A DNA stretch of 64,000 nucleotides from Candidatus Woesearchaeota archaeon (GCA_964447315.1 CAYURQ010000001.1:27351-91350), one strand, 5' to 3'; positions 27,741-59,471 are shown, counted from the first letter of the stretch. A program made the numbers and translations. The notes: generated by a model not told the origin, from the letters alone.

Positions 27741-27810
27741 AAATAGCAAAGCGTATTTTTTTAAATTATATATTAGAATATTTCATATAAAACTAATGTT
27801 TTTTATTCTT

Positions 27811-27833
27811 CATAAGGGAGTGTTGGAATAAAG
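27811..27833 (+). repeat. G/T-rich boundary element (short variant) CATAAGGGAGTGTTGGAATAAAG
   Basis: related to the recurring element at 35678, 40373, 41489 and 46630. Confidence 0.35.
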
Positions 27834-30467: not shown

Positions 30468-30474
30468 TTTTAAA

Positions 30475-31535: not shown

Positions 31536-31832
31536 TTATTCTTCATCTTCCTCAAGAACTAGTAAACTAAGTAAAACAATTAATACTCCTGCTATTATAG
31601 AAATTACCCAGCTTAGCCAACCTAACTCTAGAGTCTTAAACTTAATTATTAAAAAACCTGCAATACCAAGCAATCCTATGAATATATAATCTTTTCGTAT
31701 TTTTTCTTTGATAATTGGGGCGTGTTCTGAAAATACATCAAGAATTCCAGTAACAATTACAACAACCAATAATATATTTAAGTTAAGATAAGTGCTAACA
31801 AGTCCTGCCCATATTTGTTCAATCAATAACAA
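31536..31832 (-). CDS. 3-TM small membrane protein, copy 1 of 4
   Basis: near-identical copies at 33542, 36225 and 38237; a divergent relative at 44150. Confidence 0.5.
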   Translation of the reverse strand: MLLIEQIWAGLVSTYLNLNILLVVVIVTGILDVFSEHAPIIKEKIRKDYIFIGLLGIAGFLIIKFKTLELGWLSWVISIIAGVLIVLLSLLVLEEDEE

Positions 31833-31873
31833 TATTAGATAAGTTACTAAGACTGTTTGAAAGATGTGATTTA

Positions 31874-31908
31874 CTAGGGATGCGTTGTGTCTGTGGAAAA
31901 GGGAAAAG
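31874..31908 (+). repeat. G/T-rich element variant CTAGGGATGCGTTGTGTCTGTGGAAAAGGGAAAAG
   Basis: 5' region of the membrane-protein gene; related to 33886..33949. Confidence 0.35.
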
Positions 31909-31937
31909 TTTATAGAATTTTAAATTATTATTAAAAC

Positions 31938-32324
31938 ATGGAAGAAAGAGATGTAATAATTAAGATTTATGATAAAAAAGAAGAAATTAATAAAATAATT
32001 AAAGAATTAAAAAAATATTCATTTGAAGATTACATTAAAACTGGCCATTATGAAATTTCTTTATTAACTAAAGGAACAGATGAAGATAAATTGAGAGAGA
32101 TTTATCCTAAATTTGATATTATAGAATTAATAGCATTGAGGAGGCATAAAAATGGTTATGAGAATTATGATGTTTATTATGAACTTGAAAAAGGAAATTA
32201 TGCTTTGTTTGCCATAAATCTAGAAGGTAAAAAACCTAAAATAGATAATGCATTTATAGCTAATAGAATATTCAAAAATTTCTTAAAATCTATGGTAAAA
32301 AGATATGGTAATAAAATGGTTTAA
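31938..32324 (+). CDS. hypothetical protein (128 aa)
   Basis: duplicated at 36633. Confidence 0.45.
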   Translation: MEERDVIIKIYDKKEEINKIIKELKKYSFEDYIKTGHYEISLLTKGTDEDKLREIYPKFDIIELIALRRHKNGYENYDVYYELEKGNYALFAINLEGKKPKIDNAFIANRIFKNFLKSMVKRYGNKMV

Positions 32325-32656
32325 TTAGTCATGCATTGCATAGGTATATTTGCTATAGGAATTTGTTTTATTCCTGCTTTTTCATCTTCTAATCCCACCC
32401 CAATAAATAATTGATCTCTGCTTGGTTTTACAATAAGATTTAATTTTTCAAAGTCTTTTATTTGTTGTATATTAAACCCTATTGCCTCAAGAAAATTAGA
32501 AAACTCTCTTACTTCTAAACTAACTACTTTTCCGTTTCCAGTAGTGCTAATAATAAAATCTCCAAAGCTAAAATTCTTCTTAACTTTCTCATTATCTTGA
32601 ATAGAAGCCACAATTAAGCTGTCTGTATTCTCATCATATTTAGAGACTTTTATCAT
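32321..32656 (-). CDS. DUF2283-like small protein (111 aa)
   Basis: N-term MIKVSKYDENTDSLIVAS resembles DUF2283 (MKI.YD.EADALYIRL). Confidence 0.35.
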   Translation of the reverse strand: MIKVSKYDENTDSLIVASIQDNEKVKKNFSFGDFIISTTGNGKVVSLEVREFSNFLEAIGFNIQQIKDFEKLNLIVKPSRDQLFIGVGLEDEKAGIKQIPIANIPMQCMTN

Positions 32657-32756
32657 ATTTTATAATAATATTTTGTTTATTTATACCTTTCTATTCATCT
32701 TCTAGAGGCAAGTAAAACATATAAATCTTAATAAATAATTAAAACTCCTTTTCTTA

Positions 32757-33545
32757 ATGGGAATTGATTCATCTGAAGCAAATCAAATAATAAACGCTAT
32801 TGATTTTGTAAATCATCATTATGGAGGTTCTGCAAAAGTTACTGGAGAATTCTTTTGTAAAGACTGTAATGAGAAATTTCCTTCTGGAGAATTTCGTTAT
32901 GATAAAGGAGGGTATATTCCAGGGCCAGGTTTAATTAATTTGTCTTCTGAAAGGGCTGCATTTCCCCTTCATGAGTTTCATACTGTTCTTGCTTTAAAAG
33001 ATTCTGATGAGATCTATGAAAAAAGAGTGATTTTAGACTTATTTAATAAATCAAGAAACTGGAATTTTTATGATGTTCCAGAAAGATGCTTTGAGGATTA
33101 TATGAAAATAATGAAAACAAGCTCACTAATTTCTATTGCTAGTCTAGAAGCTAATCATTGGTGTTATTCACTTCATTCAACACCAGATTTTACAGAAGAA
33201 GAAATGCTGGAGGATCCTATTAAAAGGGATATTCTAGAAATGGATAGGAAGATTAATCTTAGGCCAAATAAATTAGAAAATGAGGTTAAACCAGAAATAA
33301 ATCGGGTTTTCAAAGACATAATTGGTAATAGAGAAATTCCAATAATTTATATTATTCCAGAAGAATTTAGAGGAGATTTTGGAGAGGAATATTATAAAAG
33401 GGATTTTATTGAAGCAACATACAATACTTTTAAAGCAAAGAACATACTTTTTCCAGATGAAAAAAGAAATTCTGTTATTAAAATAATTGATTCTTACTTT
33501 AAAGAAGCAGAATTAAAGCATGAAAGACACCCTTCTCCTTTTTAG
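32757..33545 (+). CDS. hypothetical protein (262 aa)
   Basis: duplicated at 37452. Confidence 0.45.
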   Translation: MGIDSSEANQIINAIDFVNHHYGGSAKVTGEFFCKDCNEKFPSGEFRYDKGGYIPGPGLINLSSERAAFPLHEFHTVLALKDSDEIYEKRVILDLFNKSRNWNFYDVPERCFEDYMKIMKTSSLISIASLEANHWCYSLHSTPDFTEEEMLEDPIKRDILEMDRKINLRPNKLENEVKPEINRVFKDIIGNREIPIIYIIPEEFRGDFGEEYYKRDFIEATYNTFKAKNILFPDEKRNSVIKIIDSYFKEAELKHERHPSPF

Positions 33546-33844
33546 GATTCTTCATCCTCTTCTAAAACAAGTAAACTAAGTAAAACAATTAATACTCCTG
33601 CAACAAGAGATATTACCCATGACAACCATCCTAATTCTAGTGTTTTAAACTTGATTATCAGGAAACCTGCAATACCAAGCAATCCTATAAATATGTAATC
33701 TTTAGGTTTTATTTTTTCTTTAATAATTGGAGCGTGTTCTGAAAATACATCAAGAATTCCAGTAACAATTACAACAACTAATAAGATATTTAAGTTAAGA
33801 TAAGTGCTAACAAGTCCTGCCCATATTTGCTCAATTAATAACAA
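33542..33844 (-). CDS. 3-TM small membrane protein, copy 2 of 4
   Basis: ~90% identical to copy 1. Confidence 0.5.
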   Translation of the reverse strand: MLLIEQIWAGLVSTYLNLNILLVVVIVTGILDVFSEHAPIIKEKIKPKDYIFIGLLGIAGFLIIKFKTLELGWLSWVISLVAGVLIVLLSLLVLEEDEES

Positions 33845-33885
33845 TATTAGATAAGTTACTAAGACTGTTTGAAAGGTGTGATTTA

Positions 33886-33949
33886 CTAGGGATGTGTTGT
33901 GTCCACGGAATAGGAGGTGTTGGAGTGAGGGTTTGGGAATGTTGATAGG
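33886..33949 (+). repeat. G/T-rich element (GGGTTGGAATGTTGATAGG subfamily)
   Basis: shares GGGTT(T)GG(G)AAT(A)TGTTGATAGGAT with 58344..58409 and 59472..59524. Confidence 0.4.
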
Positions 33950-33960
33950 ATTATTTTAAT

Positions 33961-34602
33961 TTATATAGAAGAATTAATATCTCCATGCACTACTAATGAT
34001 TGATAATTTTCAAATAAGAAAGGGGCATAAAATTGGGCTTCTGGAAAATCTTTAGTTGTACTTAGATACCAAATATTCTCTTCCATTTTATCTTTAGCTC
34101 TTTCAACTGACTTTTCTATAGTAGAACCTTCTATTAATGCTTTAACAAGGATATTTGAGGGTTCTAAAAATAATTTTGCTATTTTATCTCTTCTTGGAGA
34201 TGCCTCCTGATTAGGATCTTTCCCAAGATTAAAATCTCTCTCATATCCAATAAAACAAATGGCTCCTTTAGTAACTATTATCTTCCCTAGTTTTTGTCCT
34301 GATGAACAAGTTAGGGAATAAACAACCATGCCTGAAAGAACTTTTGCATTTTCTTTAGAGATTATTATCTCATTTTTATGCCCAGCAATCAAATCAGGAT
34401 TACCATGCCCATTAAACATAATAAAATCTGGTTTTTGCTTTTTTATAATTTTTAAGATTTCTTTTTTATTTGCTTTTTCTCTTTCCCTATTTATTGTTTT
34501 GTTTCCTCTTTCTTTCGAATATTTAACTAATTCTTTACTATAATAATATAAATAAGAGAGGGTCCCATCATGCTCGGGTCTGGAAAAAATAATATTACTC
34601 AT
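33961..34602 (-). CDS. clan CD cysteine peptidase-like protein (minimal caspase/legumain-like fold)
   Basis: hydrophobic strand + His-Gly (FIMFNGHG), then 34 aa later hydrophobic strand + Cys (VVYSLTCSSGQ); this is the His/Cys dyad arrangement of caspase/legumain/gingipain. Confidence 0.45.
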   Translation of the reverse strand: MSNIIFSRPEHDGTLSYLYYYSKELVKYSKERGNKTINREREKANKKEILKIIKKQKPDFIMFNGHGNPDLIAGHKNEIIISKENAKVLSGMVVYSLTCSSGQKLGKIIVTKGAICFIGYERDFNLGKDPNQEASPRRDKIAKLFLEPSNILVKALIEGSTIEKSVERAKDKMEENIWYLSTTKDFPEAQFYAPFLFENYQSLVVHGDINSSI

Positions 34603-34604
34603 AA

Positions 34605-34841
34605 TTATTGTTTTACTAAAAAACCTCTTTTGAAAGCTTTAAGATAGTTTAATTGGATTTCAACTATTCTATTTCCAATATCTGTATTATCTTCTATGTT
34701 TTTTATCAACTCATCTCTTTTCATAAATTTTCCATCAGACATTCCAAATGAAACACTTACATTTGGGGAAGCCTGCCTAATTCTTTCTATGACTATTTCT
34801 TTCTTTAACTGATCTATATTCTCTTGTTTATTTTCTTTCAT
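34605..34841 (-). CDS. hypothetical protein (78 aa), operon member
   Basis: stop 3 nt before the peptidase-like gene start. Confidence 0.4.
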   Translation of the reverse strand: MKENKQENIDQLKKEIVIERIRQASPNVSVSFGMSDGKFMKRDELIKNIEDNTDIGNRIVEIQLNYLKAFKRGFLVKQ

Positions 34842-35020
34842 ATTATTTCTAACTCTTTTAGTATTTTTAATATTTTCTCTCCATTTTCTGTCTTATTCTT
34901 TATTTCTTGGTAAGCAAGATTCCAACTTATTGGATTTTTATCTATAATTACTATTGTATTGTTTCTTTCTTTTATAGGCACTCCAGAATAAACTTTAAAG
35001 AAATCTTCTTCATTTACCAT
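34838..35020 (-). CDS. hypothetical protein (60 aa), first gene of operon
   Basis: 4-nt overlap with the next gene. Confidence 0.35.
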   Translation of the reverse strand: MVNEEDFFKVYSGVPIKERNNTIVIIDKNPISWNLAYQEIKNKTENGEKILKILKELEII

Positions 35021-35203
35021 TATTAAATTAGTAAATTAATCTTTTTAATTTTTGTCATTTCTTTTTCCTCGGCTTATTCCAATAAGGACTTTGGGGTTTC
35101 ATGAAACACTGAAGAGAAAAGGATATTTAAATGCTGTTTTTTGGAGTGTGGGTAAAACAATTCATCTTAATCTATATATTTTTTAATTAATGATTCTATA
35201 ATT

Positions 35204-35464
35204 TTAATTATACACTTTATCTCTTTTATCAATTTTTACTATCAAAATTATTTTCTGAGCTTCTTTAATTTTATATAATGCTCTAAAGTACCCAATTCTA
35301 TACCTAAAAACCATCTCATTATTATCTCTCCCAATAAACTTTGAATCACTTGGTACAGGAGTATTTTCAAGGTTTTTTAATCTCTTTTCAATCCTTTCTC
35401 TTTCTTTGGTATCTAATTTGTTTAAAAAATCCTGGGCTTTAACAGACAGCTCTACAGAATACAT
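35204..35464 (-). CDS. relE: RelE/ParE-family toxin
   Basis: MYSVELSVKAQDFLNKLDTKERERIEKRLKNLENTP...FRYRIGYFRALYKI...IILIVKIDKRDKVY matches the RelE/ParE consensus throughout. Confidence 0.75.
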   Translation of the reverse strand: MYSVELSVKAQDFLNKLDTKERERIEKRLKNLENTPVPSDSKFIGRDNNEMVFRYRIGYFRALYKIKEAQKIILIVKIDKRDKVYN

Positions 35465-35465
35465 T

Positions 35466-35627
35466 TTACAGTCTCTTTGTTCTGCCTTCTTTTAAATCTT
35501 CTTCAGCTTGATTTAAAGAGTTTATGTCGTCTTGGGTTAGAGTTACATCTATTATGTGCTCCTTTAAAGAATCCATATCTTTTTTTAAATTGTCTAGTTT
35601 ACTTATGATTAATTCTTCGTTTTCCAT
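35466..35627 (-). CDS. putative antitoxin (53 aa, not in the supplied ORF track)
   Basis: MENEELIISKLDNLKKDMDSLKEHIIDVTLTQDDINSLNQAEEDLKEGRTKRL; stop 1 nt before the relE start. Confidence 0.5.
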   Translation of the reverse strand: MENEELIISKLDNLKKDMDSLKEHIIDVTLTQDDINSLNQAEEDLKEGRTKRL

Positions 35628-35677
35628 ATCTTCCAATATAAAAATAACTATATAATCTTTTCGTATTTTTTATTTTT

Positions 35678-35715
35678 CATAAGGGGTGTTGGTTGGAGCA
35701 TTTTAGGGAGTATTG
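35678..35715 (+). repeat. G/T-rich boundary element CATAAGGGGTGTTGGTTGGAGCATTTTAGGGAGTATTG
   Basis: marks the end of duplicated unit 1; recurs at 40373, 41489 and 46630. Confidence 0.6.
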
Positions 35716-35781
35716 TAAATTAAAAAAAAAGAAATAATTAGCAGAACAATCAAAAAAAATTAGAAAAGATATGGAAAGAAT

Positions 35782-36189
35782 CTACAAAATTTCTTTTAAA
35801 TAATTAGATAAATTTAAATCCCTAATTTCTTGTTTTCTTAACCATTTATAATCTTCATGTTCTTTACTTAACTTAACATTCTCTGGTTTTTCATGAGTTT
35901 TTAATATATATATTATTCTTAAAAGATGAACTTTTTTCCCTTGTTTCTCATATTCTTTACTTAATATTCTATAGATTGAAACTATTTCTGTATCGAGACT
36001 TGTTTCTTCCTTAACTTCTCTAAGTACAGCTTCAGAAGGATCTTCTCCAAATTCAACTCTTCCTCCAGGAATTTCCCATTCTCGAGAACCATCTACTTCT
36101 TTTGAATTTCTTTTAAGAAAAAGAAACTTATCTTGTATCTGAATCAATCCATTTGCTAAAATATTTGTTTTTTTCTTAATTTCTGACAT
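35782..36189 (-). CDS. Nudix hydrolase
   Basis: Nudix box GGRVEFGEDPSEAVLREVKEETSL. Confidence 0.8.
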   Translation of the reverse strand: MSEIKKKTNILANGLIQIQDKFLFLKRNSKEVDGSREWEIPGGRVEFGEDPSEAVLREVKEETSLDTEIVSIYRILSKEYEKQGKKVHLLRIIYILKTHEKPENVKLSKEHEDYKWLRKQEIRDLNLSNYLKEIL

Positions 36190-36224
36190 GTTTTAATAAA
36201 AGAATACATTTTATTTAAGGTTTT

Positions 36225-36527
36225 CTAATCTTGTTGTTCACCTTCTTCTAAAACAAGCAAACTAAGTAAAACAATTAATACTCCTGCTATTATAGAAATT
36301 ACCCAGCTTAGCCAACCTAACTCTAGAGTCTTAAACTTAATTATTAAAAAACCTGCAATACCAAGCAATCCTATGAATATATAATCTTTTCGTATTTTTT
36401 CTTTGATAATTGGGGCGTGTTCTGAAAATACATCAAGAATTCCAGTAACAATTACAACAACCAATAATATATTTAAGTTAAGATAAGTGCTAACAAGTCC
36501 TGCCCATATTTGTTCAATCAATAACAA
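36225..36527 (-). CDS. 3-TM small membrane protein, copy 3 of 4
   Basis: C-terminus differs from copy 1 (EEGEQQD vs EEDEE) at the duplication junction. Confidence 0.5.
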   Translation of the reverse strand: MLLIEQIWAGLVSTYLNLNILLVVVIVTGILDVFSEHAPIIKEKIRKDYIFIGLLGIAGFLIIKFKTLELGWLSWVISIIAGVLIVLLSLLVLEEGEQQD

Positions 36528-36632
36528 TATTAGATAAGTTACTAAGACTGTTTGAAAGATGTGATTTACTAGGGATGCGTTGTGTCTGTGGAAAAGGGAA
36601 AAGTTTATAGAATTTTAAATTATTATTAAAAC

Positions 36633-37019
36633 ATGGAAGAAAGAGATGTAATAATTAAGATTTATGATAAAAAAGAAGAAATTAATAAAATAATTAAAGA
36701 ATTAAAAAAATATTCATTTGAAGATTACATTAAAACTGGCCATTATGAAATTTCTTTATTAACTAAAGGAACAGATGAAGATAAATTGAGAGAGATTTAT
36801 CCTAAATTTGATATTATAGAATTAATAGCATTGAGGAGGCATAAAAATGGTTATGAGAATTATGATGTTTATTATGAACTTGAAAAAGGAAATTATGCTT
36901 TGTTTGCCATAAATCTAGAAGGTAAAAAACCTAAAATAGATAATGCATTTATAGCTAATAGAATATTCAAAAATTTCTTAAAATCTATGGTAAAAAGATA
37001 TGGTAATAAAATGGTTTAA
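36633..37019 (+). CDS. hypothetical protein (128 aa), duplicate
   Basis: identical to 31938..32324. Confidence 0.45.
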   Translation: MEERDVIIKIYDKKEEINKIIKELKKYSFEDYIKTGHYEISLLTKGTDEDKLREIYPKFDIIELIALRRHKNGYENYDVYYELEKGNYALFAINLEGKKPKIDNAFIANRIFKNFLKSMVKRYGNKMV

Positions 37020-37351
37020 TTAGTCATGCATTGCATAGGTATATTTGCTATAGGAATTTGTTTTATTCCTGCTTTTTCATCTTCTAATCCCACCCCAATA
37101 AATAATTGATCTCTGCTTGGTTTTACAATAAGATTTAATTTTTCAAAGTCTTTTATTTGTTGTATATTAAACCCTATTGCCTCAAGAAAATTAGAAAACT
37201 CTCTTACTTCTAAACTAACTACTTTTCCGTTTCCAGTAGTGCTAATAATAAAATCTCCAAAGCTAAAATTCTTCTTAACTTTCTCATTATCTTGAATAGA
37301 AGCCACAATTAAGCTGTCTGTATTCTCATCATATTTAGAGACTTTTATCAT
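37016..37351 (-). CDS. DUF2283-like small protein, duplicate
   Basis: identical to 32321..32656. Confidence 0.35.
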   Translation of the reverse strand: MIKVSKYDENTDSLIVASIQDNEKVKKNFSFGDFIISTTGNGKVVSLEVREFSNFLEAIGFNIQQIKDFEKLNLIVKPSRDQLFIGVGLEDEKAGIKQIPIANIPMQCMTN

Positions 37352-37451
37352 ATTTTATAATAATATTTTGTTTATTTATACCTTTCTATTCATCTTCTAG
37401 AGGCAAGTAAAACATATAAATCTTAATAAATAATTAAAACTCCTTTTCTTA

Positions 37452-38240
37452 ATGGGAATTGATTCATCTGAAGCAAATCAAATAATAAACGCTATTGATT
37501 TTGTAAATCATCATTATGGAGGTTCTGCAAAAGTTACTGGAGAATTCTTTTGTAAAGACTGTAATGAGAAATTTCCTTCTGGAGAATTTCGTTATGATAA
37601 AGGAGGGTATATTCCAGGGCCAGGTTTAATTAATTTGTCTTCTGAAAGGGCTGCATTTCCCCTTCATGAGTTTCATACTGTTCTTGCTTTAAAAGATTCT
37701 GATGAGATCTATGAAAAAAGAGTGATTTTAGACTTATTTAATAAATCAAGAAACTGGAATTTTTATGATGTTCCAGAAAGATGCTTTGAGGATTATATGA
37801 AAATAATGAAAACAAGCTCACTAATTTCTATTGCTAGTCTAGAAGCTAATCATTGGTGTTATTCACTTCATTCAACACCAGATTTTACAGAAGAAGAAAT
37901 GCTGGAGGATCCTATTAAAAGGGATATTCTAGAAATGGATAGGAAGATTAATCTTAGGCCAAATAAATTAGAAAATGAGGTTAAACCAGAAATAAATCGG
38001 GTTTTCAAAGACATAATTGGTAATAGAGAAATTCCAATAATTTATATTATTCCAGAAGAATTTAGAGGAGATTTTGGAGAGGAATATTATAAAAGGGATT
38101 TTATTGAAGCAACATACAATACTTTTAAAGCAAAGAACATACTTTTTCCAGATGAAAAAAGAAATTCTGTTATTAAAATAATTGATTCTTACTTTAAAGA
38201 AGCAGAATTAAAGCATGAAAGACACCCTTCTCCTTTTTAG
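37452..38240 (+). CDS. hypothetical protein (262 aa), duplicate
   Basis: identical to 32757..33545. Confidence 0.45.
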   Translation: MGIDSSEANQIINAIDFVNHHYGGSAKVTGEFFCKDCNEKFPSGEFRYDKGGYIPGPGLINLSSERAAFPLHEFHTVLALKDSDEIYEKRVILDLFNKSRNWNFYDVPERCFEDYMKIMKTSSLISIASLEANHWCYSLHSTPDFTEEEMLEDPIKRDILEMDRKINLRPNKLENEVKPEINRVFKDIIGNREIPIIYIIPEEFRGDFGEEYYKRDFIEATYNTFKAKNILFPDEKRNSVIKIIDSYFKEAELKHERHPSPF

Positions 38241-38539
38241 GATTCTTCATCCTCTTCTAAAACAAGTAAACTAAGTAAAACAATTAATACTCCTGCAACA
38301 AGAGATATTACCCATGACAACCATCCTAATTCTAGTGTTTTAAACTTGATTATCAGGAAACCTGCAATACCAAGCAATCCTATAAATATGTAATCTTTAG
38401 GTTTTATTTTTTCTTTAATAATTGGAGCGTGTTCTGAAAATACATCAAGAATTCCAGTAACAATTACAACAACTAATAAGATATTTAAGTTAAGATAAGT
38501 GCTAACAAGTCCTGCCCATATTTGCTCAATTAATAACAA
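38237..38539 (-). CDS. 3-TM small membrane protein, copy 4 of 4
   Basis: identical to 33542..33844. Confidence 0.5.
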   Translation of the reverse strand: MLLIEQIWAGLVSTYLNLNILLVVVIVTGILDVFSEHAPIIKEKIKPKDYIFIGLLGIAGFLIIKFKTLELGWLSWVISLVAGVLIVLLSLLVLEEDEES

Positions 38540-38655
38540 TATTAGATAAGTTACTAAGACTGTTTGAAAGGTGTGATTTACTAGGGATGTGTTGTGTCCA
38601 CGGAATAGGAGGTGTTGGAGTGAGGGTTTGGGAATGTTGATAGGATTATTTTAAT

Positions 38656-39297
38656 TTATATAGAAGAATTAATATCTCCATGCACTACTAATGATTGATA
38701 ATTTTCAAATAAGAAAGGGGCATAAAATTGGGCTTCTGGAAAATCTTTAGTTGTACTTAGATACCAAATATTCTCTTCCATTTTATCTTTAGCTCTTTCA
38801 ACTGACTTTTCTATAGTAGAACCTTCTATTAATGCTTTAACAAGGATATTTGAGGGTTCTAAAAATAATTTTGCTATTTTATCTCTTCTTGGAGATGCCT
38901 CCTGATTAGGATCTTTCCCAAGATTAAAATCTCTCTCATATCCAATAAAACAAATGGCTCCTTTAGTAACTATTATCTTCCCTAGTTTTTGTCCTGATGA
39001 ACAAGTTAGGGAATAAACAACCATGCCTGAAAGAACTTTTGCATTTTCTTTAGAGATTATTATCTCATTTTTATGCCCAGCAATCAAATCAGGATTACCA
39101 TGCCCATTAAACATAATAAAATCTGGTTTTTGCTTTTTTATAATTTTTAAGATTTCTTTTTTATTTGCTTTTTCTCTTTCCCTATTTATTGTTTTGTTTC
39201 CTCTTTCTTTCGAATATTTAACTAATTCTTTACTATAATAATATAAATAAGAGAGGGTCCCATCATGCTCGGGTCTGGAAAAAATAATATTACTCAT
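38656..39297 (-). CDS. clan CD cysteine peptidase-like protein, duplicate
   Basis: identical to 33961..34602. Confidence 0.45.
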   Translation of the reverse strand: MSNIIFSRPEHDGTLSYLYYYSKELVKYSKERGNKTINREREKANKKEILKIIKKQKPDFIMFNGHGNPDLIAGHKNEIIISKENAKVLSGMVVYSLTCSSGQKLGKIIVTKGAICFIGYERDFNLGKDPNQEASPRRDKIAKLFLEPSNILVKALIEGSTIEKSVERAKDKMEENIWYLSTTKDFPEAQFYAPFLFENYQSLVVHGDINSSI

Positions 39298-39299
39298 AA

Positions 39300-39536
39300 T
39301 TATTGTTTTACTAAAAAACCTCTTTTGAAAGCTTTAAGATAGTTTAATTGGATTTCAACTATTCTATTTCCAATATCTGTATTATCTTCTATGTTTTTTA
39401 TCAACTCATCTCTTTTCATAAATTTTCCATCAGACATTCCAAATGAAACACTTACATTTGGGGAAGCCTGCCTAATTCTTTCTATGACTATTTCTTTCTT
39501 TAACTGATCTATATTCTCTTGTTTATTTTCTTTCAT
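39300..39536 (-). CDS. hypothetical protein (78 aa), duplicate
   Basis: identical to 34605..34841. Confidence 0.4.
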   Translation of the reverse strand: MKENKQENIDQLKKEIVIERIRQASPNVSVSFGMSDGKFMKRDELIKNIEDNTDIGNRIVEIQLNYLKAFKRGFLVKQ

Positions 39537-39715
39537 ATTATTTCTAACTCTTTTAGTATTTTTAATATTTTCTCTCCATTTTCTGTCTTATTCTTTATTT
39601 CTTGGTAAGCAAGATTCCAACTTATTGGATTTTTATCTATAATTACTATTGTATTGTTTCTTTCTTTTATAGGCACTCCAGAATAAACTTTAAAGAAATC
39701 TTCTTCATTTACCAT
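39533..39715 (-). CDS. hypothetical protein (60 aa), duplicate
   Basis: identical to 34838..35020. Confidence 0.35.
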   Translation of the reverse strand: MVNEEDFFKVYSGVPIKERNNTIVIIDKNPISWNLAYQEIKNKTENGEKILKILKELEII

Positions 39716-39898
39716 TATTAAATTAGTAAATTAATCTTTTTAATTTTTGTCATTTCTTTTTCCTCGGCTTATTCCAATAAGGACTTTGGGGTTTCATGAA
39801 ACACTGAAGAGAAAAGGATATTTAAATGCTGTTTTTTGGAGTGTGGGTAAAACAATTCATCTTAATCTATATATTTTTTAATTAATGATTCTATAATT

Positions 39899-40159
39899 TT
39901 AATTATACACTTTATCTCTTTTATCAATTTTTACTATCAAAATTATTTTCTGAGCTTCTTTAATTTTATATAATGCTCTAAAGTACCCAATTCTATACCT
40001 AAAAACCATCTCATTATTATCTCTCCCAATAAACTTTGAATCACTTGGTACAGGAGTATTTTCAAGGTTTTTTAATCTCTTTTCAATCCTTTCTCTTTCT
40101 TTGGTATCTAATTTGTTTAAAAAATCCTGGGCTTTAACAGACAGCTCTACAGAATACAT
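39899..40159 (-). CDS. relE: RelE/ParE-family toxin, duplicate
   Basis: identical to 35204..35464. Confidence 0.75.
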   Translation of the reverse strand: MYSVELSVKAQDFLNKLDTKERERIEKRLKNLENTPVPSDSKFIGRDNNEMVFRYRIGYFRALYKIKEAQKIILIVKIDKRDKVYN

Positions 40160-40160
40160 T

Positions 40161-40322
40161 TTACAGTCTCTTTGTTCTGCCTTCTTTTAAATCTTCTTCA
40201 GCTTGATTTAAAGAGTTTATGTCGTCTTGGGTTAGAGTTACATCTATTATGTGCTCCTTTAAAGAATCCATATCTTTTTTTAAATTGTCTAGTTTACTTA
40301 TGATTAATTCTTCGTTTTCCAT
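40161..40322 (-). CDS. putative antitoxin (53 aa), duplicate
   Basis: identical to 35466..35627 by the +4695 offset. Confidence 0.5.
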   Translation of the reverse strand: MENEELIISKLDNLKKDMDSLKEHIIDVTLTQDDINSLNQAEEDLKEGRTKRL

Positions 40323-40372
40323 ATCTTCCAATATAAAAATAACTATATAATCTTTTCGTATTTTTTATTTTT

Positions 40373-40436
40373 CATAAGGGGTGTTGGTTGGAGCATTTTA
40401 GGGAGTATTGGGGGAGGAAGGGAAAAGTAGATAAAT
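40373..40436 (+). repeat. G/T-rich boundary element (long form)
   Basis: ...GGAGCATTTTAGGGAGTATTGGGGGAGGAAGGGAAAAGTAGATAAAT; the GGGAAAAGTAGATAAAT tail is shared with 41489..41554. Confidence 0.6.
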
Positions 40437-40591
40437 ATTCATTAAACAATAATATCACAATGAGAAAAAGTTTATATATCCCGCATTGTTTGATAAATTA
40501 TGAGAGTAAAATGGGGGGTGAATGTATTTTCTGAAAGATAGTTTTATAAATATAATTAAATCTCTCTTTTATAAAGATTTTAAGTAAAAAA

Positions 40592-40846
40592 ATGGAACAG
40601 CAATTTATGACAAATAATTCAGATAATTTGCAAGAACTCTTTGATTCTAAAAAAAATGAAGTTGTTTCTCTTTGTAAGGAAGTTGCTGAAAATGAATTTG
40701 ACTTATTTGAATTTAATCTTTTCTTAGCTTCTATGGGGAAGAAAAAATTAGATGAATCTACTAAGAAAGTAAGAGAACTTAGAAAGAAAGTAGATAAAGG
40801 AAAGATTGATTTAACAAAAGACGAAGATATGTTGGATGATTATTAA
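40592..40846 (+). CDS. hypothetical acidic protein (84 aa)
   Basis: ORF only. Confidence 0.35.
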   Translation: MEQQFMTNNSDNLQELFDSKKNEVVSLCKEVAENEFDLFEFNLFLASMGKKKLDESTKKVRELRKKVDKGKIDLTKDEDMLDDY

Positions 40847-41427
40847 TGCCTTTTCTTTTTATTAGAATGTTTATTTTTTGAAAAATTTCTTAACATCTTA
40901 TTTACCTCTTGTTCTGATCCAGGTTCTATAATTGTTGGTACATCCAAATCAATATTTAAATAATTACAAGGATCTTGAAAATCTCTTCTATTATTTGTTG
41001 AGATGCAATTTATTCCAGCAATACAATATACAGATATTATTCTTAAATCATTATCCCCTGCCTTCCAATTATTGTCTTTTCTTTCTGTTTTTAGTTTGTC
41101 AAAAAGTGCATTTACCTTGGCTTGATTTACATCTTTCTTTTTTATGGGTTTTATCCTATTTCTTCTTAAAAAATTAAAGATTTCTCTTTTATTTAATTCT
41201 TTATCTGGATTCTTTTTAGATAACAGATTTAATAATTCACTAAAAACAATATAATTTGTATGAAGAAAATTGCCTCTTTTTGCAATTCTAGGCCTATATC
41301 CCCAAGTTCCTTTTTCATTTTCCATCCAAGAAAAAGAGTTATCTGTATCTAAACCAATTTTTCTTAAAATTTTATTTCTTGCTACAACTCTTTCCATATG
41401 AATAACCTTCTTTTTCTTATTATCCAT
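40843..41427 (-). CDS. hypothetical basic protein (194 aa; start moved to MDNKKKK)
   Basis: the listed N-terminal extension to 41610 is translation of the G/T-rich element. Confidence 0.4.
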   Translation of the reverse strand: MDNKKKKVIHMERVVARNKILRKIGLDTDNSFSWMENEKGTWGYRPRIAKRGNFLHTNYIVFSELLNLLSKKNPDKELNKREIFNFLRRNRIKPIKKKDVNQAKVNALFDKLKTERKDNNWKAGDNDLRIISVYCIAGINCISTNNRRDFQDPCNYLNIDLDVPTIIEPGSEQEVNKMLRNFSKNKHSNKKKRH

Positions 41428-41488
41428 TATTTGTTTAATCAAACTAAATTTAAAAATATATAGCAAGATTAAAGAATTTTTTATTTTC

Positions 41489-41554
41489 CATAGGGGGTGT
41501 TGGTTGGAGCATTTGGGGGAGTGTTTGGAGGGAGAGAGGGAAAAGTAGATAAAT
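41489..41554 (+). repeat. G/T-rich boundary element (long form)
   Basis: CATAGGGGGTGTTGGTTGGAGCATTTGGGGGAGTGTTTGGAGGGAGAGAGGGAAAAGTAGATAAAT. Confidence 0.6.
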
Positions 41555-41575
41555 GTTAAAACAATCTCTTTTTTT

Positions 41576-42445
41576 ATGGAGATTGCATCAGTTATAGAAA
41601 TAGGAAGCAAGTTTTTATCCTATGTTCTTGGGTTTTCAAGCATAGAATCAAATGAGATGGTGTTATACAGAATTCTTGCAGTATTTATTCTTGGTTGGTT
41701 GTGCTTATTTGGTTTTTTAATCATAAGAAAATCAAAATCCTTAAAACATTGGAGAATTCCCCATTTAGTTAGTATTAGTGCCATAATCTTAGTAAGTTCA
41801 GTTGGATTTTTTATTAGTTATATTCTCATATTAAATTTTAATATGTTAATTATTATAACAGAAAATATAAATGAACCAATAAACTTTCTAACAGTACTCT
41901 TTTTTATGATTTTTTACATTTCATTTGGTCTTGATTCAATAAATAAAAAATTAGGGAATGGGGAAAACTCTGAAGAATTAATTCCAAAAGAGGTGGGAAT
42001 CTTTGTCTGGAGATCAATTATGCTTGGATTTGGATTGCTAGTTGTTGTATTGTCCCAATTATTTCTATTAAAATATCTAGGGAGACTTCCTTTTGACTTA
42101 AATGTTTCTCCATCTCCTCCTTGGTTTTATTTAGCTGCGTTTCTTTTCTTTTTTTTAGCTGGAATTCTCCTTTGTTATTTTTCACTTGCAAGAAAAAAAT
42201 CTACTGAATTTTTTAATAAAATGGACAAATTTATGGAAAATAATCTTAGAGTGCCATTCATTTTTATGTTTGTTATTTTCATAATAATATTAATAGATAA
42301 AATAATAAGAAAAGATTCTGATAATTTAATACGTTCAGCTTTTATAAGCGCAGTTTTCTTAGTTATTTCTATTTTTATTAAAAAAATAAATAAGTGGGTA
42401 GTAGATTTTTTGAAAAATCTGGGTACTTTGGAAAAGAAAAAGTAA
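41576..42445 (+). CDS. multi-TM membrane protein (289 aa)
   Basis: several hydrophobic helices. Confidence 0.45.
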   Translation: MEIASVIEIGSKFLSYVLGFSSIESNEMVLYRILAVFILGWLCLFGFLIIRKSKSLKHWRIPHLVSISAIILVSSVGFFISYILILNFNMLIIITENINEPINFLTVLFFMIFYISFGLDSINKKLGNGENSEELIPKEVGIFVWRSIMLGFGLLVVVLSQLFLLKYLGRLPFDLNVSPSPPWFYLAAFLFFFLAGILLCYFSLARKKSTEFFNKMDKFMENNLRVPFIFMFVIFIIILIDKIIRKDSDNLIRSAFISAVFLVISIFIKKINKWVVDFLKNLGTLEKKK

Positions 42446-42471
42446 TTAAACTTAAAAGCTTCTTTAAAAAT

Positions 42472-42645
42472 ATGAAAGATTATATTGAAAATGCCGAAGT
42501 TGTTATAGAAGATGAAATGACTGTCAAAGGTTCTGTAGAGATTGATGAAGATGGAACAGTCACAATAATCAGGGGTGATGGCAGATATAGAGGAAAAAGA
42601 GTTTTAACCCATATTTCTAAGTGCATTATAAAAGAATTATCTTGA
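42472..42645 (+). CDS. small hypothetical protein (start moved to MKDYIEN to avoid overlap)
   Basis: ORF 42394..42645 overlaps the preceding membrane-protein gene. Confidence 0.3.
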   Translation: MKDYIENAEVVIEDEMTVKGSVEIDEDGTVTIIRGDGRYRGKRVLTHISKCIIKELS

Positions 42646-42730
42646 TTTAGTTTCTCCACAAATTACTAATCTCCCTGAATGAATTTATAAGAAAAGTGAA
42701 TTATTTAAATCCTATTCTATATAAGGAAGT

Positions 42731-44074
42731 ATGAAAAAACTCCACACAATTCTTCTAATAGGGTTTATCCTATTAGCTGTAATACTTAATTTTTTACCTA
42801 GGTTGGATTATAATTATCCAATACATGTAGATGAGTATGTTCATATTCAGTATGGGAATCACTTATCTGGTGGGGCTCCCCTTTATTTTGGAGGAGAGTA
42901 TAATAGTCTGGAAGCAGGGTTTCATTATTTAATTGCTACTCTTAATTCTATTGGGGTTCCATATTTGACTATGTTTCAGTTTTTTGCTTCAATAATAACT
43001 ATTCTTATTTGTTTAGGAGTATTTATTTTGGCTAGGAGATTATTTAATGAAAGAGCAGGAGTATATGCTGTTTTATTTATTGCTGTTTTAAAATCAACAA
43101 CAATGATTTTAGGGCCTATGTTCTTTGTTCCAATGGCTATTGGAATGTTTTTTATTGCAATGATTTTGTTTTTAATTGAAATAGGTAGTAAAGCCTGGAT
43201 ACTTTTCCTTGCAGGAATTTTAATGATTCATCCTCCAACTGCAACTGCAATTTTATTGTTAATTAATATTAGGTTTATTTTCTTAAAGAAAAATTATATA
43301 AAGAACTTAGGTTATCAGGCAATTGCAGGATTAATTGCCCTGCCAATGTATATTCCTCACTTCATAAGCAAAGGAGTAGAAACAATTAATTCTCTATCTT
43401 TTACTCCAATAGTAAGTGCATTATTTATTCCGAGATTTTTAACTTATTTTGTAATATTAATAGTAATTGCAGGAATTTATTTTACAGCAGAGAAAAAGAA
43501 GTATTCAATAATAACTTATGCTATTTCATTGCTGATATTTATATTTATATTTTATAAATTTAGAATAGAAGTGTTTATTCCATATCCAAGAGCATTAATG
43601 TATCTTTTTGTTGTATTTGCTCTTTTGTTTGGATATGGGTCTTCAGAATTAATTAAACTTTCAAAGAATAAAAAAATACAAGCAGTAATTCTTATTTTAA
43701 TAATAGCTTTGACATTAATATTTGCACTCCCTTCAAAAATAACTTCTACAAAAGAGCATTTTCAGATAATGGATGATAAAGATTATCAGGCATTTAATTA
43801 TATTAAAGAAAACACTCTTGAAAATTCAATAATTCTTGCAGATCCCTGGAAAGCAAATGCAATAACTCCTTTTGCTGAAAGAGTAGTTTACACTAGGATA
43901 GTTCAGGGGCCTAATGAAGAAAGTGAAATAAAAAACCAAGAATCTTATGATTTTTTTAAAAACAATTGTGAGGATATTAATTTCCTTGTTAATAATCAGA
44001 TAAATGTTGTGTATGGGGAGTGTGGGAATTCTTCTTTGGAGATGGTTTATGAGAATGTTTATTTTCTTAGATAA
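42731..44074 (+). CDS. polytopic membrane protein, GT-C-type glycosyltransferase-like (uncertain)
   Basis: 447 aa, >10 TM helices, acidic motif in the first loop (HVDEYVH). Confidence 0.35.
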   Translation: MKKLHTILLIGFILLAVILNFLPRLDYNYPIHVDEYVHIQYGNHLSGGAPLYFGGEYNSLEAGFHYLIATLNSIGVPYLTMFQFFASIITILICLGVFILARRLFNERAGVYAVLFIAVLKSTTMILGPMFFVPMAIGMFFIAMILFLIEIGSKAWILFLAGILMIHPPTATAILLLINIRFIFLKKNYIKNLGYQAIAGLIALPMYIPHFISKGVETINSLSFTPIVSALFIPRFLTYFVILIVIAGIYFTAEKKKYSIITYAISLLIFIFIFYKFRIEVFIPYPRALMYLFVVFALLFGYGSSELIKLSKNKKIQAVILILIIALTLIFALPSKITSTKEHFQIMDDKDYQAFNYIKENTLENSIILADPWKANAITPFAERVVYTRIVQGPNEESEIKNQESYDFFKNNCEDINFLVNNQINVVYGECGNSSLEMVYENVYFLR

Positions 44075-44149
44075 ACAAATAAAGTATTAAGTAACCCTAT
44101 AATTAAAGTAATCAAACCCTTATATTCTTTTTTTATAATGTTTATTTGA

Positions 44150-44632
44150 CTAAGAATAATGAGATATCCTATTTCTATCTTCTATTGAATAATCCCTTTC
44201 TTCTTGAGGTGGTTCATAGTGAGATTCATTTTTATTTTCAGGCTCGTCTTTTTCAGTAAGAACCATCCAGCTTAATAAAATAATAATTAATCCTCCTAGT
44301 ATTGCAATTGCATAACCAATCCAACCTAAATCTTTTAACTTAAGATAAATAATTCCTGCTCCTAATATTCCTAAAATAATTATGAAAACTTTGTCTTTCC
44401 ATGTTATTGGCTTTTCTTTTTGTTTCTTTATTTTTGGAGGAAAAATAATGCTTATTGCTCCAACAATGATTACTGCAAACATGAACCAATTAATATTAAT
44501 CAAGGAATCAATTGTTGTTTGATAAAATTCTCTTAATAACAAGGTAATTAAAAACAAGAACAACAATATTTGAAATGTTGTGTGAAATATGTGCTTCACA
44601 TGTTCTATTATTATTTTTTGTTTTCTGTTCAT
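44150..44632 (-). CDS. membrane protein related to the 3-TM family (160 aa)
   Basis: C-terminal ...LKLKDLGWIGYAIAILGGLIIILLSWMVLTEKDE parallels ...FKTLELGWLSWVISIIAGVLIVLLSLLVLEEDEE. Confidence 0.45.
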   Translation of the reverse strand: MNRKQKIIIEHVKHIFHTTFQILLFLFLITLLLREFYQTTIDSLININWFMFAVIIVGAISIIFPPKIKKQKEKPITWKDKVFIIILGILGAGIIYLKLKDLGWIGYAIAILGGLIIILLSWMVLTEKDEPENKNESHYEPPQEERDYSIEDRNRISHYS

Positions 44633-45132
44633 TCTACCTTAACCTTCTTTAATTTATCTGCAAGAGCTTTTAATTCTTCATCTGAAGCTCTTGGACCTTC
44701 AATAGAAGTTATATATCCTGGATATTCTTTGAAAAAAACTTCTAAATCATCTAAATATTGTTTCCATTCCCCTTTTTTAAGATGTTCTGTTTTATGCATA
44801 GGAAAAAGCTTAGTATGGGTATGATCTATTCCCATTCCTTCTGCCATAAGTCCAACTCTTCCAACATCCTTGAAATGTTTTTTTAATATTTTAGATACTT
44901 TTTTTGATGCAATTATAAGTTCTTTTAAATTGTTATCTTGTAAATCAAGAACATCGCTTTTTAGATGTTTTTTAGTTATAACTACTGTTGAACCCTCTGT
45001 ACTTGGAAAAGGAGATAAAAATGCCATGTGTTTTTTATCTTCCCAGAATAATCCATGAAGAGGAATGTTTCCTTTAACTATTTCACAGAAAATGCATTTT
45101 CCCTCTTTTGTTTTTGAATCATAGTTTGCCAT
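44629..45132 (-). CDS. HIT-family (histidine triad) hydrolase
   Basis: N-term CIFCEIVKG; histidine-triad-like GIDHTHTKLFPMH. Confidence 0.65.
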   Translation of the reverse strand: MANYDSKTKEGKCIFCEIVKGNIPLHGLFWEDKKHMAFLSPFPSTEGSTVVITKKHLKSDVLDLQDNNLKELIIASKKVSKILKKHFKDVGRVGLMAEGMGIDHTHTKLFPMHKTEHLKKGEWKQYLDDLEVFFKEYPGYITSIEGPRASDEELKALADKLKKVKVE

Positions 45133-46274
45133 TATCCAAACAACCCCTTAAAATTTACATAATCATTAATATTAAACTTTTCTGCATTACCACTATCTAT
45201 TTCCCATACAACATGATAAATATAATCCATAATATATCCTTCATATTTCTTTGAATCAACATACCAATCTCCTTGCTGTGAATCATAACTTAATTCTGGT
45301 TGTTCTAAAACAATTACATACAATGGAGGATATTTCCCTTCCCCTAAATGTGGGACATAAATCCAATGAACATTCCAGTAAAATGAATTCTTGAAATACA
45401 ATGTATTCGGAGCATAAAATATAATTCCTAGTTTTTTATCTTCATTATAAAATATTTCATATTTTGAATTGTTTATTTCGTGGGTAGAGCCTTGTCGGAT
45501 TGTTACTAATTTATTTGTATCAACAATTTCTGAAACACTCTCACGAAGTTCTTGTGAAATATTTGTTGTTTGAGTTCCATTTTCCCTTAATATTATATCT
45601 ATTGTTTGGTTTGTTTCTGTTAAGCTATAATCATTATTGTAAATCTCTAATTTATCTGTGTAAATATCATATCCAGAAAGAATTAATCCATATGCAAAGT
45701 TGCCAAGCTCTGAATTATCATTTGAAGAAGCTGAAAATTCTATCTTGAAATAAGGTTTTTGTTTGAATAAATAATAATCAAACCCTGAATTTAAGTTTTC
45801 AGAGTATAAATCAACTGAAACTTCTTTTATCCTTTTTTCATTAGTTTCTGAAACTGAAGTTTGGTTTGGATTTGTAAACCATCCTATTTTGGTTACTTGT
45901 TCGGGGTCTGTTGTCAAAGAATCAATAATAATTCCATTTGAAGTAGATAAGGTAGTATAATTTGTTCCATTATAAGTTATTATTTGTCTATAACTTTCTT
46001 TTCCAAATAATCTATCTTCATTATTATTTAGATTTAGTTTAGACTCCCATCCACTTAAAAGAAATGTGTTTGAATTTTTGTAATAATTGTAAGAAGTTAT
46101 TCCAGTTGAATTTGAATTTCTTATACTCATTAAATCGGCATTTTTAGAGGGTTCTGCAAACATGAAGATTCCAACAAAAACTAAAATAATCAATAGGATT
46201 GCTCCAAATAAAACCCAATGGTGTTTTATCTCGTATTCTATTTCTTCAATTAAATTATGTTCGTGTTCAGGCAT
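45132..46274 (-). CDS. membrane-anchored extracellular protein (start moved to MPEHEHN)
   Basis: single TM after the N-terminus; Asn/Ser/Thr/Tyr-rich body. Confidence 0.45.
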   Translation of the reverse strand: MPEHEHNLIEEIEYEIKHHWVLFGAILLIILVFVGIFMFAEPSKNADLMSIRNSNSTGITSYNYYKNSNTFLLSGWESKLNLNNNEDRLFGKESYRQIITYNGTNYTTLSTSNGIIIDSLTTDPEQVTKIGWFTNPNQTSVSETNEKRIKEVSVDLYSENLNSGFDYYLFKQKPYFKIEFSASSNDNSELGNFAYGLILSGYDIYTDKLEIYNNDYSLTETNQTIDIILRENGTQTTNISQELRESVSEIVDTNKLVTIRQGSTHEINNSKYEIFYNEDKKLGIIFYAPNTLYFKNSFYWNVHWIYVPHLGEGKYPPLYVIVLEQPELSYDSQQGDWYVDSKKYEGYIMDYIYHVVWEIDSGNAEKFNINDYVNFKGLFG

Positions 46275-46275
46275 T

Positions 46276-46413
46276 TTATTTTTTCTTAGGCTTATTCCAA
46301 TAAGGACTTTTACATTTAGGGCAAACCATAGGCAACTCATTAGAACGAGTTATCCAAGAATGATTACATCTCTCACATTTACATTCAAAAACCTTAATCT
46401 CTTTCTTAGACAT
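46276..46413 (-). CDS. zinc-ribbon small protein (45 aa, not in the ORF track)
   Basis: MSKKEIKVFECKCERCNHSWITRSNELPMVCPKCKSPYWNKPKKK (CxC..C...CPKC); its stop abuts the next gene's ATG. Confidence 0.5.
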   Translation of the reverse strand: MSKKEIKVFECKCERCNHSWITRSNELPMVCPKCKSPYWNKPKKK

Positions 46414-46629
46414 AATTATCAAAACCATTCCAAGTTTAAATGTATTACTATGATAATATACTCACATAAATTTATAAACTATATATATCTATAATATATT
46501 ACTATGAGTAACTACAAACCCAAAACAAGATATTGTTCTAAGTGCCTTCAGAGTATAGATGAAACCAAAGATGATTATGTTATGTTAATTAGTAAAACAG
46601 GGCAAAAAATTAAAGAATTTTTTATTTTC

Positions 46630-46666
46630 CATAGGGGGTGTTGGTTGGAGCATTTTAGGGAGTATT
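46630..46666 (+). repeat. G/T-rich boundary element CATAGGGGGTGTTGGTTGGAGCATTTTAGGGAGTATT
   Basis: fourth copy of this family. Confidence 0.6.
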
Positions 46667-46718
46667 ATCAATTAAACAAAAAGAAATAATTTAAATAGAA
46701 TATTTAGTATCTCTTATT

Positions 46719-55184: not shown

Positions 55185-55185
55185 T

Positions 55186-55320: not shown

Positions 55321-55321
55321 T

Positions 55322-58318: not shown

Positions 58319-58343
58319 GTGGTTGGAATATTTTAAGAGAATT

Positions 58344-58409
58344 AGAGGTTGTTGGAGTTAATTGTGGGTTGGAATATGTTGATAGGATGTTTTGGGATTG
58401 TTGGGGGTG
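58344..58409 (+). repeat. G/T-rich element (GGGTTGGAATATGTTGATAGGAT subfamily)
   Basis: translated by ORF 58349 as a spurious N-terminal extension. Confidence 0.45.
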
Positions 58410-58477
58410 TTTTATGTGGATTTATTTTACCCCTACAAAATAGGAAGATTTATAAATATGTGGGGGTAAATATATTT

Positions 58478-59428: not shown

Positions 59429-59471
59429 TTAATATTGATTTTTGTTATTATTTTATATTTACAAGATTATA

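Follow-up and report, generated by a model that had tools for sequence, protein, structure and literature searches.

The 3′ end of a small zinc-finger gene recurs at module borders in a toxin–antitoxin and defence island of a Candidatus Woesearchaeota archaeon

A G/T-rich repeat found at gene-module borders in a 64,000-nt stretch of DNA (hereafter the window) from a Candidatus Woesearchaeota archaeon (GCA_964447315.1 CAYURQ010000001.1:27351-91350) represents the 3′-terminal portion of a small, conserved zinc-finger gene, here designated Z, a coding origin that an earlier note on this DNA had overlooked. The Z-derived copies (W1–W4, with W4 lying within intact Z, and a possible W0) are referred to as family 1, and a separate small repeat as subfamily 2. 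The family-1 repeats are genuine, and are neither a free-standing G-quadruplex (G4) nor a regulatory motif: copies other than W4 are truncated fragments that lie at module borders in the orientation of the intact gene, and crossovers fall within a core that all of them share. Our preferred reading, to which we assign a probability of about 0.6, is that the fragments are attachment site (att)-like gene-fragment repeats that provide portable homology for cassette shuffling by ordinary homologous recombination. Relatives were compared through contigs L004, L006 and L009 for fragments, and a scan for recombinases covered the window together with contigs L006, L007, L008, L009 and L010.

The four-site repeat described in the earlier note was readily recovered as a 37-mer at 35678, 40373 and 46630 (0 mismatches) and at 41489 (3 mismatches), always on the + strand, with none arising in 100 shuffles against the four copies present. 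Self-BLAST extended the repeat beyond the limits previously given, to 50–93 bp (93% identity between 35665-35739 and 46617-46691; 95% between 41465-41522 and 46606-46663), and upheld a tail common to the copies at 40373 and 41489 (86% identity between 40360-40450 and 41476-41565, including the GGGAAAAGTAGATAAAT tail). The G-richness noted for these sites and for those of subfamily 2 was confirmed: tracts with at least 42% G in 40 nt were confined to them, ordinary intergenic DNA containing 5–12% G, and the GC content of the window is ~28%. A shorter relative proposed at 27811 was marginal, with 95% identity over 20 nt (E = 0.003) and an nhmmer E-value of 0.005 with a profile that included the window copies versus 0.22 with a profile from other genomes only. 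This possible decayed Z fragment, W0 (27797..27830, +; TTTTTTATTCTTCATAAGGGAGTGTTGGAATAA), lies just upstream of the promoter of the gene at 27911..29068.

Intact Z (46504..46689, +) is an ATG-start open reading frame (ORF) of 61 aa (MSNYKPKTRYCSKCLQSIDETKDDYVMLISKTGQKIKEFFIFHRGCWLEHFREYYQLNKKK), in which the element part encodes FFIFHRGCWLEHFREY. The C-terminus of this ORF had been dismissed as spurious; the ORF is instead a genuine gene and the source of the element. The G/T-richness results from codon content, GGG TGT TGG TTG GAG CAT encoding G-C-W-L-E-H, and from further codons for Trp-Glu-Leu-Glu-Gly-Lys. Homologues in other DPANN contigs share 57–68% identity with Z, the 68%-identical one having been retrieved by a word-indexed search. 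An exhaustive HMMER search returned 11 representatives at E < 1e-3, of which one, the 340-aa 'Z-like' match P0007, was rejected as a thyroglobulin-repeat false positive, and contig scans located intact Z at seven further loci. "Candidatus Diapherotrites archaeon ADurb.Bin253" is the closest named relative with Z, other homologues being annotated Nanoarchaeia, which places the organism among the DPANN archaea. Five residues are invariant in the family alignment (K31, F42, H43, C46 and W47), and four of them (F42, H43, C46 and W47) fall inside the element. Differences between intact copies are mostly synonymous (pN/pS 0.12–0.40, a range that leaves out the L004_Z rows; pS 0.35–0.9), and Z belongs to a family of small proteins that is conserved in DPANN archaea and subject to purifying selection.

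Direct reading of the protein gives the spacing C11-x2-C14-x28-H43-x2-C46, with an aromatic-H-x-x-C-W knuckle. PARP-type zinc fingers have the signature C-x2-C-x28/30-H-x2-C, to which Z conforms exactly as C-x2-C-x28-H-x2-C. The best structural match found by Foldseek for the AlphaFold2 model of Z (predicted local distance difference test score 87.5) was the PARP-1 DNA-binding finger 4av1_C (probability 0.95, TM 0.50), with the fold match reaching only E = 0.38. Z differs from PARP-type fingers in being a stand-alone archaeal protein of 50–70 aa, and it matched no Pfam family, zf-PARP included. The intact gene is usually divergent from a small winged helix–turn–helix (wHTH) or ribbon–helix–helix (RHH) gene.

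The copies in the window combine a core with one of two tails. W1 (35665..35739, +; core 35665-35714) carries tail1 and still reads FFIFHKGCWLEHFREYCKLKKKK followed by a stop codon, W2 (40360..40436, +) joins the same core as W1 to tail2 (GGGGGAGGAAGGGAAAAGTAGATAAAT), W3 (41465..41556, +) also consists of core and tail2, and W4 (+; core 46617-46666, followed by tail1 as far as the stop codon) forms the 3′ end of intact Z and matches W1 at 93%. Tail2 of W2, and likewise that of W3, is homologous to the EYWELEGK end (with its stop codon) and the 3′ flank AAAAGTAGATA of tail2-type Z genes. Alignment of W1, W2 and W3 to Z begins only at codons 36–39; in the frame of Z no ATG, GTG or TTG lies upstream, and W2 has no in-frame start codon upstream of the F39 codon. 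These three copies are headless, 5′-truncated, non-coding fragments of Z. A profile made solely from other genomes detected all four window copies at E ~1e-12 (W1 at E = 4.5e-12).

Each window fragment starts, by direct reading, at the outer edge of the transcription factor B recognition element (BRE)/TATA of a minus-strand gene. W1 lies directly outside that of a minus-strand antitoxin/RelE operon (35204..35627; TATA at −28..−21 and BRE at −36..−30 from the ATG), and W3 is situated between the promoters of a minus-strand PIN-like gene (40843..41428) and a plus-strand 289-aa gene (41576). With the core just outside the BRE/TATA of the flanking genes, the suggestion of a shared promoter or 5′ leader finds no support for the core, and the promoter-like AAAAGTAGATAAAT is present only in the tail of copies 2 and 3. 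Downstream of this TATA-like sequence in the W2 tail (40460-40534, +), at a distance of 25 nt, an ATG opens a 24-codon ORF (MRKSLYIPHCLINYESKMGGECIF, then a stop codon), which could be a leaderless micro-ORF or meaningless.

An nhmmer profile located additional fragments in L004 (4813), L006 (11549, 18498 and 19093) and L009 (~687, 1098, 1572, 2316 and 10844), each sharing its strand with the intact Z of the same contig; at least 12 fragments are known, all co-oriented with intact Z. The relatives' fragments carry indels of 1 nt and 6 nt, frameshifting ones among them, and are therefore non-coding. Copies are separated by 0.4–8 kb of unrelated genes (NYN, toxin–antitoxin (TA) pairs, methyltransferase and PIN), the spacing between fragments being 411, 474, 744 and 765 bp in L009, 931 bp in L004 and 1116, 4695 and 5141 bp in the window. 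Genes lying between copies comprise those at 742-1062 (−) and 1160-1531 (−) of L009, an NYN nuclease (+), a two-gene TA-like operon (L009 10168-10814) and the L004 methyltransferase. The core varies in a genome-specific way (GGTTGGAGCA in the window, GGATGGGGCA in L006/L009 and GGATGGAACA in L004), and the relatives' fragments carry the same variant as their own intact Z. Other 3′ gene fragments were also observed in these contigs, from a RelE-like gene in L009 (2367-2525) and from gene M (see below) in L004.

That copies of the repeat sit at module boundaries was confirmed by a 4,180-bp duplication (31536-35715 = 36231-40410) that stops exactly at the end of the element core. All eight mismatches of this match are located in 31538-31563, inside the repeated gene M, the remainder being 100% identical, and the exact block is thus 4,152 bp in length, starting within the 3′ end of gene M on the left and stopping within the Z core on the right (unit A, 31564..35715; unit A′, 36259..40410). 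Identity ends at GAGTATTG inside the core, beyond which tail1 and tail2 diverge, and the 515-bp spacer between the two units carries a NUDIX gene (35782..36189, −). The block is bounded on both sides by dispersed repeats (M and the Z core), as homologous exchange or conversion predicts. Gene M belongs to a four-copy family of ~100-aa membrane proteins (31536-31832, 33542-33844, 36225-36527 and 38237-38539, all −; ~89% identical between subtypes), and an M-like C-terminus is also found in a 160-aa protein (44150-44632, −). Gene M marks junctions as well, L004 1-146 corresponding to window 31498-31641 with a jump to 42694 thereafter. Within the duplicated unit, we also noted a further headless gene fragment at 35060-35105 (−), the 3′ end (MKPQSPYWNKPRKKK and a stop codon) of the 50-aa zinc-ribbon gene at 46276..46428, with 93.5% identity over 31 nt.

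Module B, between W2 and W3 (40437..41464), consists of an 84-aa gene (+) and the PIN-like gene (−) that neighbours W3, which has a weak Pfam PIN match. Module C, between W3 and intact Z (41557..46503), contains genes of 289, 447, 160, 167 (HIT), 402 and 50 aa, followed by the Z promoter. It is syntenic with L004 at 80–88% nucleotide identity except for three genes: the 289-aa gene is not in L004, the HIT gene is replaced there by an HD gene and the 50-aa gene by an RHH gene.

Cassette order in the syntenic L004 agrees with the proposal of breakpoints at the element, since a methyltransferase cassette that L004 has and the window lacks is delimited precisely by the repeats. L004 is arranged as 377-aa gene, RHH gene, Z with tail2, methyltransferase, Z fragment with tail1 and Polysacc_synt, whereas the window has the 402-aa gene, the 50-aa gene, Z with tail1 and Polysacc_synt. 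The window Z is a mosaic: against the intact Z of L004 it shows 75% identity in its 5′ part, 82% in the core and 35% in the tail, whereas against the L004 fragment the core is only 66% identical and the tail with downstream sequence 89%. Such a mosaic is expected if an L004-like arrangement lost the tail2–cassette–core segment by core–core recombination, or if the reverse insertion took place. The L004 fragment still reads FFIFHKICWMEHFEEYYQLNKKK followed by a stop codon and differs from the window copy by eight synonymous and four non-synonymous codon changes, and therefore served until recently as a functional paralogous 3′ end.

Among the window copies themselves, two left haplotypes (TTTTTCATAAGGGG in W1 and W2; TTTTCCATAGGGGG in W3 and W4) occur with two tails (tail1 in W1 and W4; tail2 in W2 and W3) in all four possible combinations, a four-gamete pattern. 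The crossover point varies by event, falling after GAGTATTG for W1/W2 and after GCATTT for W3/W4, which fits homologous rather than fixed-site exchange, although later mutation or gene conversion may have shifted the observed positions of the junctions.

From these observations we infer a loop-out/loop-in route with homologous (RadA-type) enzymology. Each module would be held between two direct-repeat cores of 45–60 bp, and recombination of one core with another would loop out the tail and its genes as a circle, or delete them; the excised circle could re-enter at any other core, while unequal or ectopic exchange would duplicate modules, and exchange would also keep the cores within one genome alike. 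This scheme would account for the co-orientation of the copies, for tails travelling with the right-hand cassette, for the mosaic Z and the concerted evolution of cores, and also for the resemblance of module C plus the 5′ half of Z in the window to a circular permutation of the L004 unit. Homologous recombination is favoured because crossover points differ and because no recombinase was seen, Pfam scans of ~115 ORFs (window, L006, L007, L008, L009 and L010) having returned no recombinase, integrase, resolvase or transposase domain.

Several points weigh against this reading. The sample comprises five genomes, with 1–20 kb looked at per relative contig, and the exact 4.15-kb duplication may have been produced by the assembly. 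The window fragments are all 5′ of intact Z, while simple serial insertion would put them 3′. Not all junctions use the element, the window/L004 breakpoint 31641|42694 lying in gene M and not in Z, and module B is a portable two-gene unit that also exists in other DPANN genomes, where no Z element was found near its homologues. The 5′ edges of four fragment lineages lie within ~15 nt of each other, at AAAGAATTTTTTATTTT, which looks site-specific, though the spread of one ancestral fragment would explain this clustering too. Finally, DPANN archaea have tiny, streamlined genomes with few recognisable mobile elements, and the retention of 50–90 nt of 'junk' in such a genome hints at selection.

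The clustered 5′ edges bring in a rather unlikely alternative, that a dedicated site-specific recombinase recognises the core, its gene being located on a mobile element or in another part of the genome; with the same reserve, the arrays might then be an archaeal analogue of integron cassette arrays or clusters of attC sites lacking integron-integrases (CALINs), or else serially accreted integrative elements. In Prochlorococcus, where tycheposons accrete in genomic islands, partial repeats of the target gene mark serial integration (bioRxiv 10.1101/2020.12.28.424599), and the partial Z copies spread across the island carry this known signature. As in that system, co-oriented partial copies of the target 3′ end flank cargo and are dispersed in a variable island, a module present in L004 and absent from the window has repeats at its exact limits, and only a partial copy of the target stands between successive modules, inserts flanked in this way being Z–methyltransferase–fragment in L004, Z–TA operon–10844 in L009 and W2–module B–W3 in the window. 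The classical layout of intact target, insert and 3′ fragment, with the intact gene 5′ and fragments only 3′, holds in L004, L006 and L009 (10844) but not in the window (fragments at 27.8–41.5 kb versus intact Z at 46.5 kb), where they are on the wrong side of the gene, nor for L009 687–2316. Unlike the att repeats of tycheposons, moreover, the target here, instead of a tRNA, is a small protein-coding zinc-finger gene, the ~115 ORFs near the repeats contain no integrase, resolvase or transposase domain and no integrase remnant, and crossover points are not constant between events but vary within the repeat. ARAGORN predicted no tRNA gene and Rfam at gathering thresholds gave no hit across the whole window, and 2.9 million viral contigs contained neither a Z homologue nor the core, which also speaks against a dedicated recombinase.

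Integron and CALIN arrays are known in archaea (PMC9668308), and the co-oriented single-gene cassettes of 411–765 bp in L009 recall them, as do the short and mostly single-gene cassettes in general, many of them TA, between one co-oriented repeated site, the greater likeness of sites within than between genomes, and the existence of arrays without an adjacent integrase. In contrast to integrons, however, the site has no imperfect inverted repeat (R''-L'' / L'-R') and no single-strand hairpin, derives from and overlaps a protein-coding sequence and is almost free of C, while the cassette genes run in either direction from their own promoters; no IntI-type tyrosine recombinase (Phage_integrase) occurred among the ORFs scanned. 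An attC-like hairpin was absent from both strands of the four copies (minimum free energy −1.9 to −6.3 kcal/mol, z −0.9 to +1.9 versus shuffles), the core being unable to self-pair because it contains almost no C. A miniature inverted-repeat transposable element or insertion-sequence remnant, which would be marked by terminal inverted repeats and a target-site duplication, was likewise rejected, since folding gave no inverted repeat in this G/T-only sequence and the copies align collinearly to the 3′ end of a gene. The closest known kind is the partial-target repeats of serial integration (tycheposons), followed by integron/CALIN arrays; the element departs from both in its protein-coding origin, its lack of secondary structure and the absence of a visible recombinase.

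The 'minimal mobile elements' and repeat-flanked islands of Neisseria are modules swapped by homologous recombination in short conserved flanks, with no element-encoded recombinase. Unrelated modules are likewise swapped, lost or duplicated here without such an enzyme; the difference is that homology is provided by a 45–60-bp pseudogene fragment in many copies within one archaeal island, compared with conserved flanking genes in a competent bacterium. A quite unlikely idea is a DPANN cassette-capture platform that would be integron-like in function and unrelated in mechanism: the unstructured 45–60-bp site in the 3′ half of the PARP-like Z gene would act as attI/attC, an unrecognised recombinase would move single-gene TA and defence cassettes, and Z or its wHTH/RHH partner might serve as the site-recognition factor.

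That fragments begin immediately outside the BRE/TATA of minus-strand genes might also mean that they are kept as cis-regulatory DNA, upstream activating or insulating between divergent promoters, perhaps bound by Z or by the wHTH/RHH neighbour or acting through a G4, which we find very doubtful. W2, W3 and the L009 fragment at 1572 do fill divergent intergenic regions, their tails closing with a TATA-like box on the plus strand, GRGTRTTGG stands twice in the core as a direct repeat (~23 nt apart), the L009 tail has a strong G4 motif (GGGAGTTGGGGGGGTTGGGGGGG), and sequence is conserved despite frameshifts; yet W1 and the L004 fragment are without a divergent partner gene, orientation is fixed to Z and not to the neighbouring gene, and the homogenisation within genomes is predicted by recombination with no need for functional selection. 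Nor is G4 potential conserved. Taking as a G4 four runs of at least three G with loops of no more than 7 (or 12) nt, or a G4Hunter score of at least 1.5, conserved across copies, we found no canonical motif in the window, a G4Hunter score of 1.24–1.28 in the core and 1.72 only in the W2 and W3 tails, and L004 cores without G runs of length three or more, as against the strong G4 at 1593 in L009; G4 formation was rejected as the rationale of the element. Thus, of the three roles proposed in the earlier note, recombination at cassette boundaries is supported, whereas the G4 role is not, nor is that of promoter or leader for the core. In L009 itself, the tail2 region of the fragment is expanded at 1593-1640 into GGGAGTTGGGGGGGTTGGGGGGGTTGGGAAGGGGG, probably through G-run slippage, and this strong canonical G4 motif lies between divergent promoters.

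Lastly, the fragments might be inert pseudogene remains of random rearrangements in an island undergoing decay, with no further role in recombination, in line with the other 3′ gene fragments of the region (the 50-aa zinc-ribbon gene at 35060-35105, M in L004 and the RelE-like gene at L009 2367-2525). We regard this as highly improbable, as the copies are too many and all co-oriented, their 5′ edges cluster, and the four-gamete pattern together with duplication and indel endpoints in the core show that they recombine.

Subfamily 2 is a real small repeat with two good copies and a weaker relative present twice in the duplication. Of its reported copies, an exact 23-mer is present at 58366 and 59500 (both +), the positions previously given being the starts of wider G-rich tracts; the motif is missing at the supposed relatives (31874 and 36569), which represent the shared upstream region of the four-copy gene M. 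Identity is 86% between 58333-58389 and 59467-59523, and a 77% relative lies at 33926-33956, repeated at 38621-38651. The tracts (33905..33955, +, repeated at 38600-38650 by the block duplication; 58333..58420, +; 59467..59524, +) lie downstream of gene M and precede plus-strand genes by 50–110 nt, the second being situated ahead of a Fic-domain gene (58478..59428) in a divergent intergenic region and the third upstream of the promoter of a 95-aa gene (59574..59861). By eye they share ATAGGRGGTGTTGGAG and a GGTGTTGGAG-like motif with Z; descent from a diverged Z fragment was rejected, the tract at 33905..33955 not being significantly related to the Z profile, with nhmmer giving E = 16 at 58321 and nothing at 33.9 or 59.5 kb. 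No copies of subfamily 2 were detected in the relatives' contigs. A partial duplication of ~90% identity (56237-56508 versus 58033-58302), which takes in the promoters and 5′ regions of a pair of minus-strand paralogues (128 and 115 aa), ends 17 nt before the subfamily-2 tract at 58319.

Several further features of the window were noted. Two tandem copies of a palindrome with a TATA box after it (AAAGTTTCCTTCT and AAAAGGAAAGTTTTATATA) at 56550-56617, upstream of an AAA_14/DUF4143 ATPase gene (56640..57914), look like a duplicated operator–promoter. A G/T-rich tandem repeat (GTTTGGTTTGTTTAGTTT-like) at 55185-55340, in which 55226-55280 matches 55285-55340, is placed either between two minus-strand genes (54492..55184 and 55322..56056) or inside them; it probably encodes a low-complexity Lys/Gln/Thr-rich stretch and has no relation to the Z element. 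At 30159-30590 and 30475-30783 (−), two paralogous small ORFs rich in Gly and Cys, which overlap or adjoin each other, give rise to the only strongly C-rich tract on the + strand of the window (30627-30705; G4Hunter −1.6). The first 22 kb consist of archaeal core genes (RpoB, fused RpoA'/A'', aEF-2, EF-1alpha and uS12). RNA polymerase A' and A'' are usually separate subunits in archaea, and the 1163-aa ORF at 3983-7474 (+) is an apparent fusion, matching A' over residues 4–820 and A'' over residues 808–1132. From ~27 kb on there is an island of small, mostly unannotated genes, many with TA and defence domains, including a RelE/ParE-like toxin, PIN, NUDIX, HIT, Fic/DOC, HEPN plus nucleotidyltransferase and an AAA_14 ATPase.

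For annotation, the findings imply that a 'G4-like' intergenic motif can be the codons of a Gly/Cys/Trp-rich zinc knuckle, and that the 61-aa gene Z, whose exact sequence was not on record, merits calling. Defence and TA islands of DPANN archaea vary between close relatives, and a recombining short gene-fragment repeat at cassette borders offers a concrete, testable route for this variability, whichever enzyme, homologous or site-specific, is involved.

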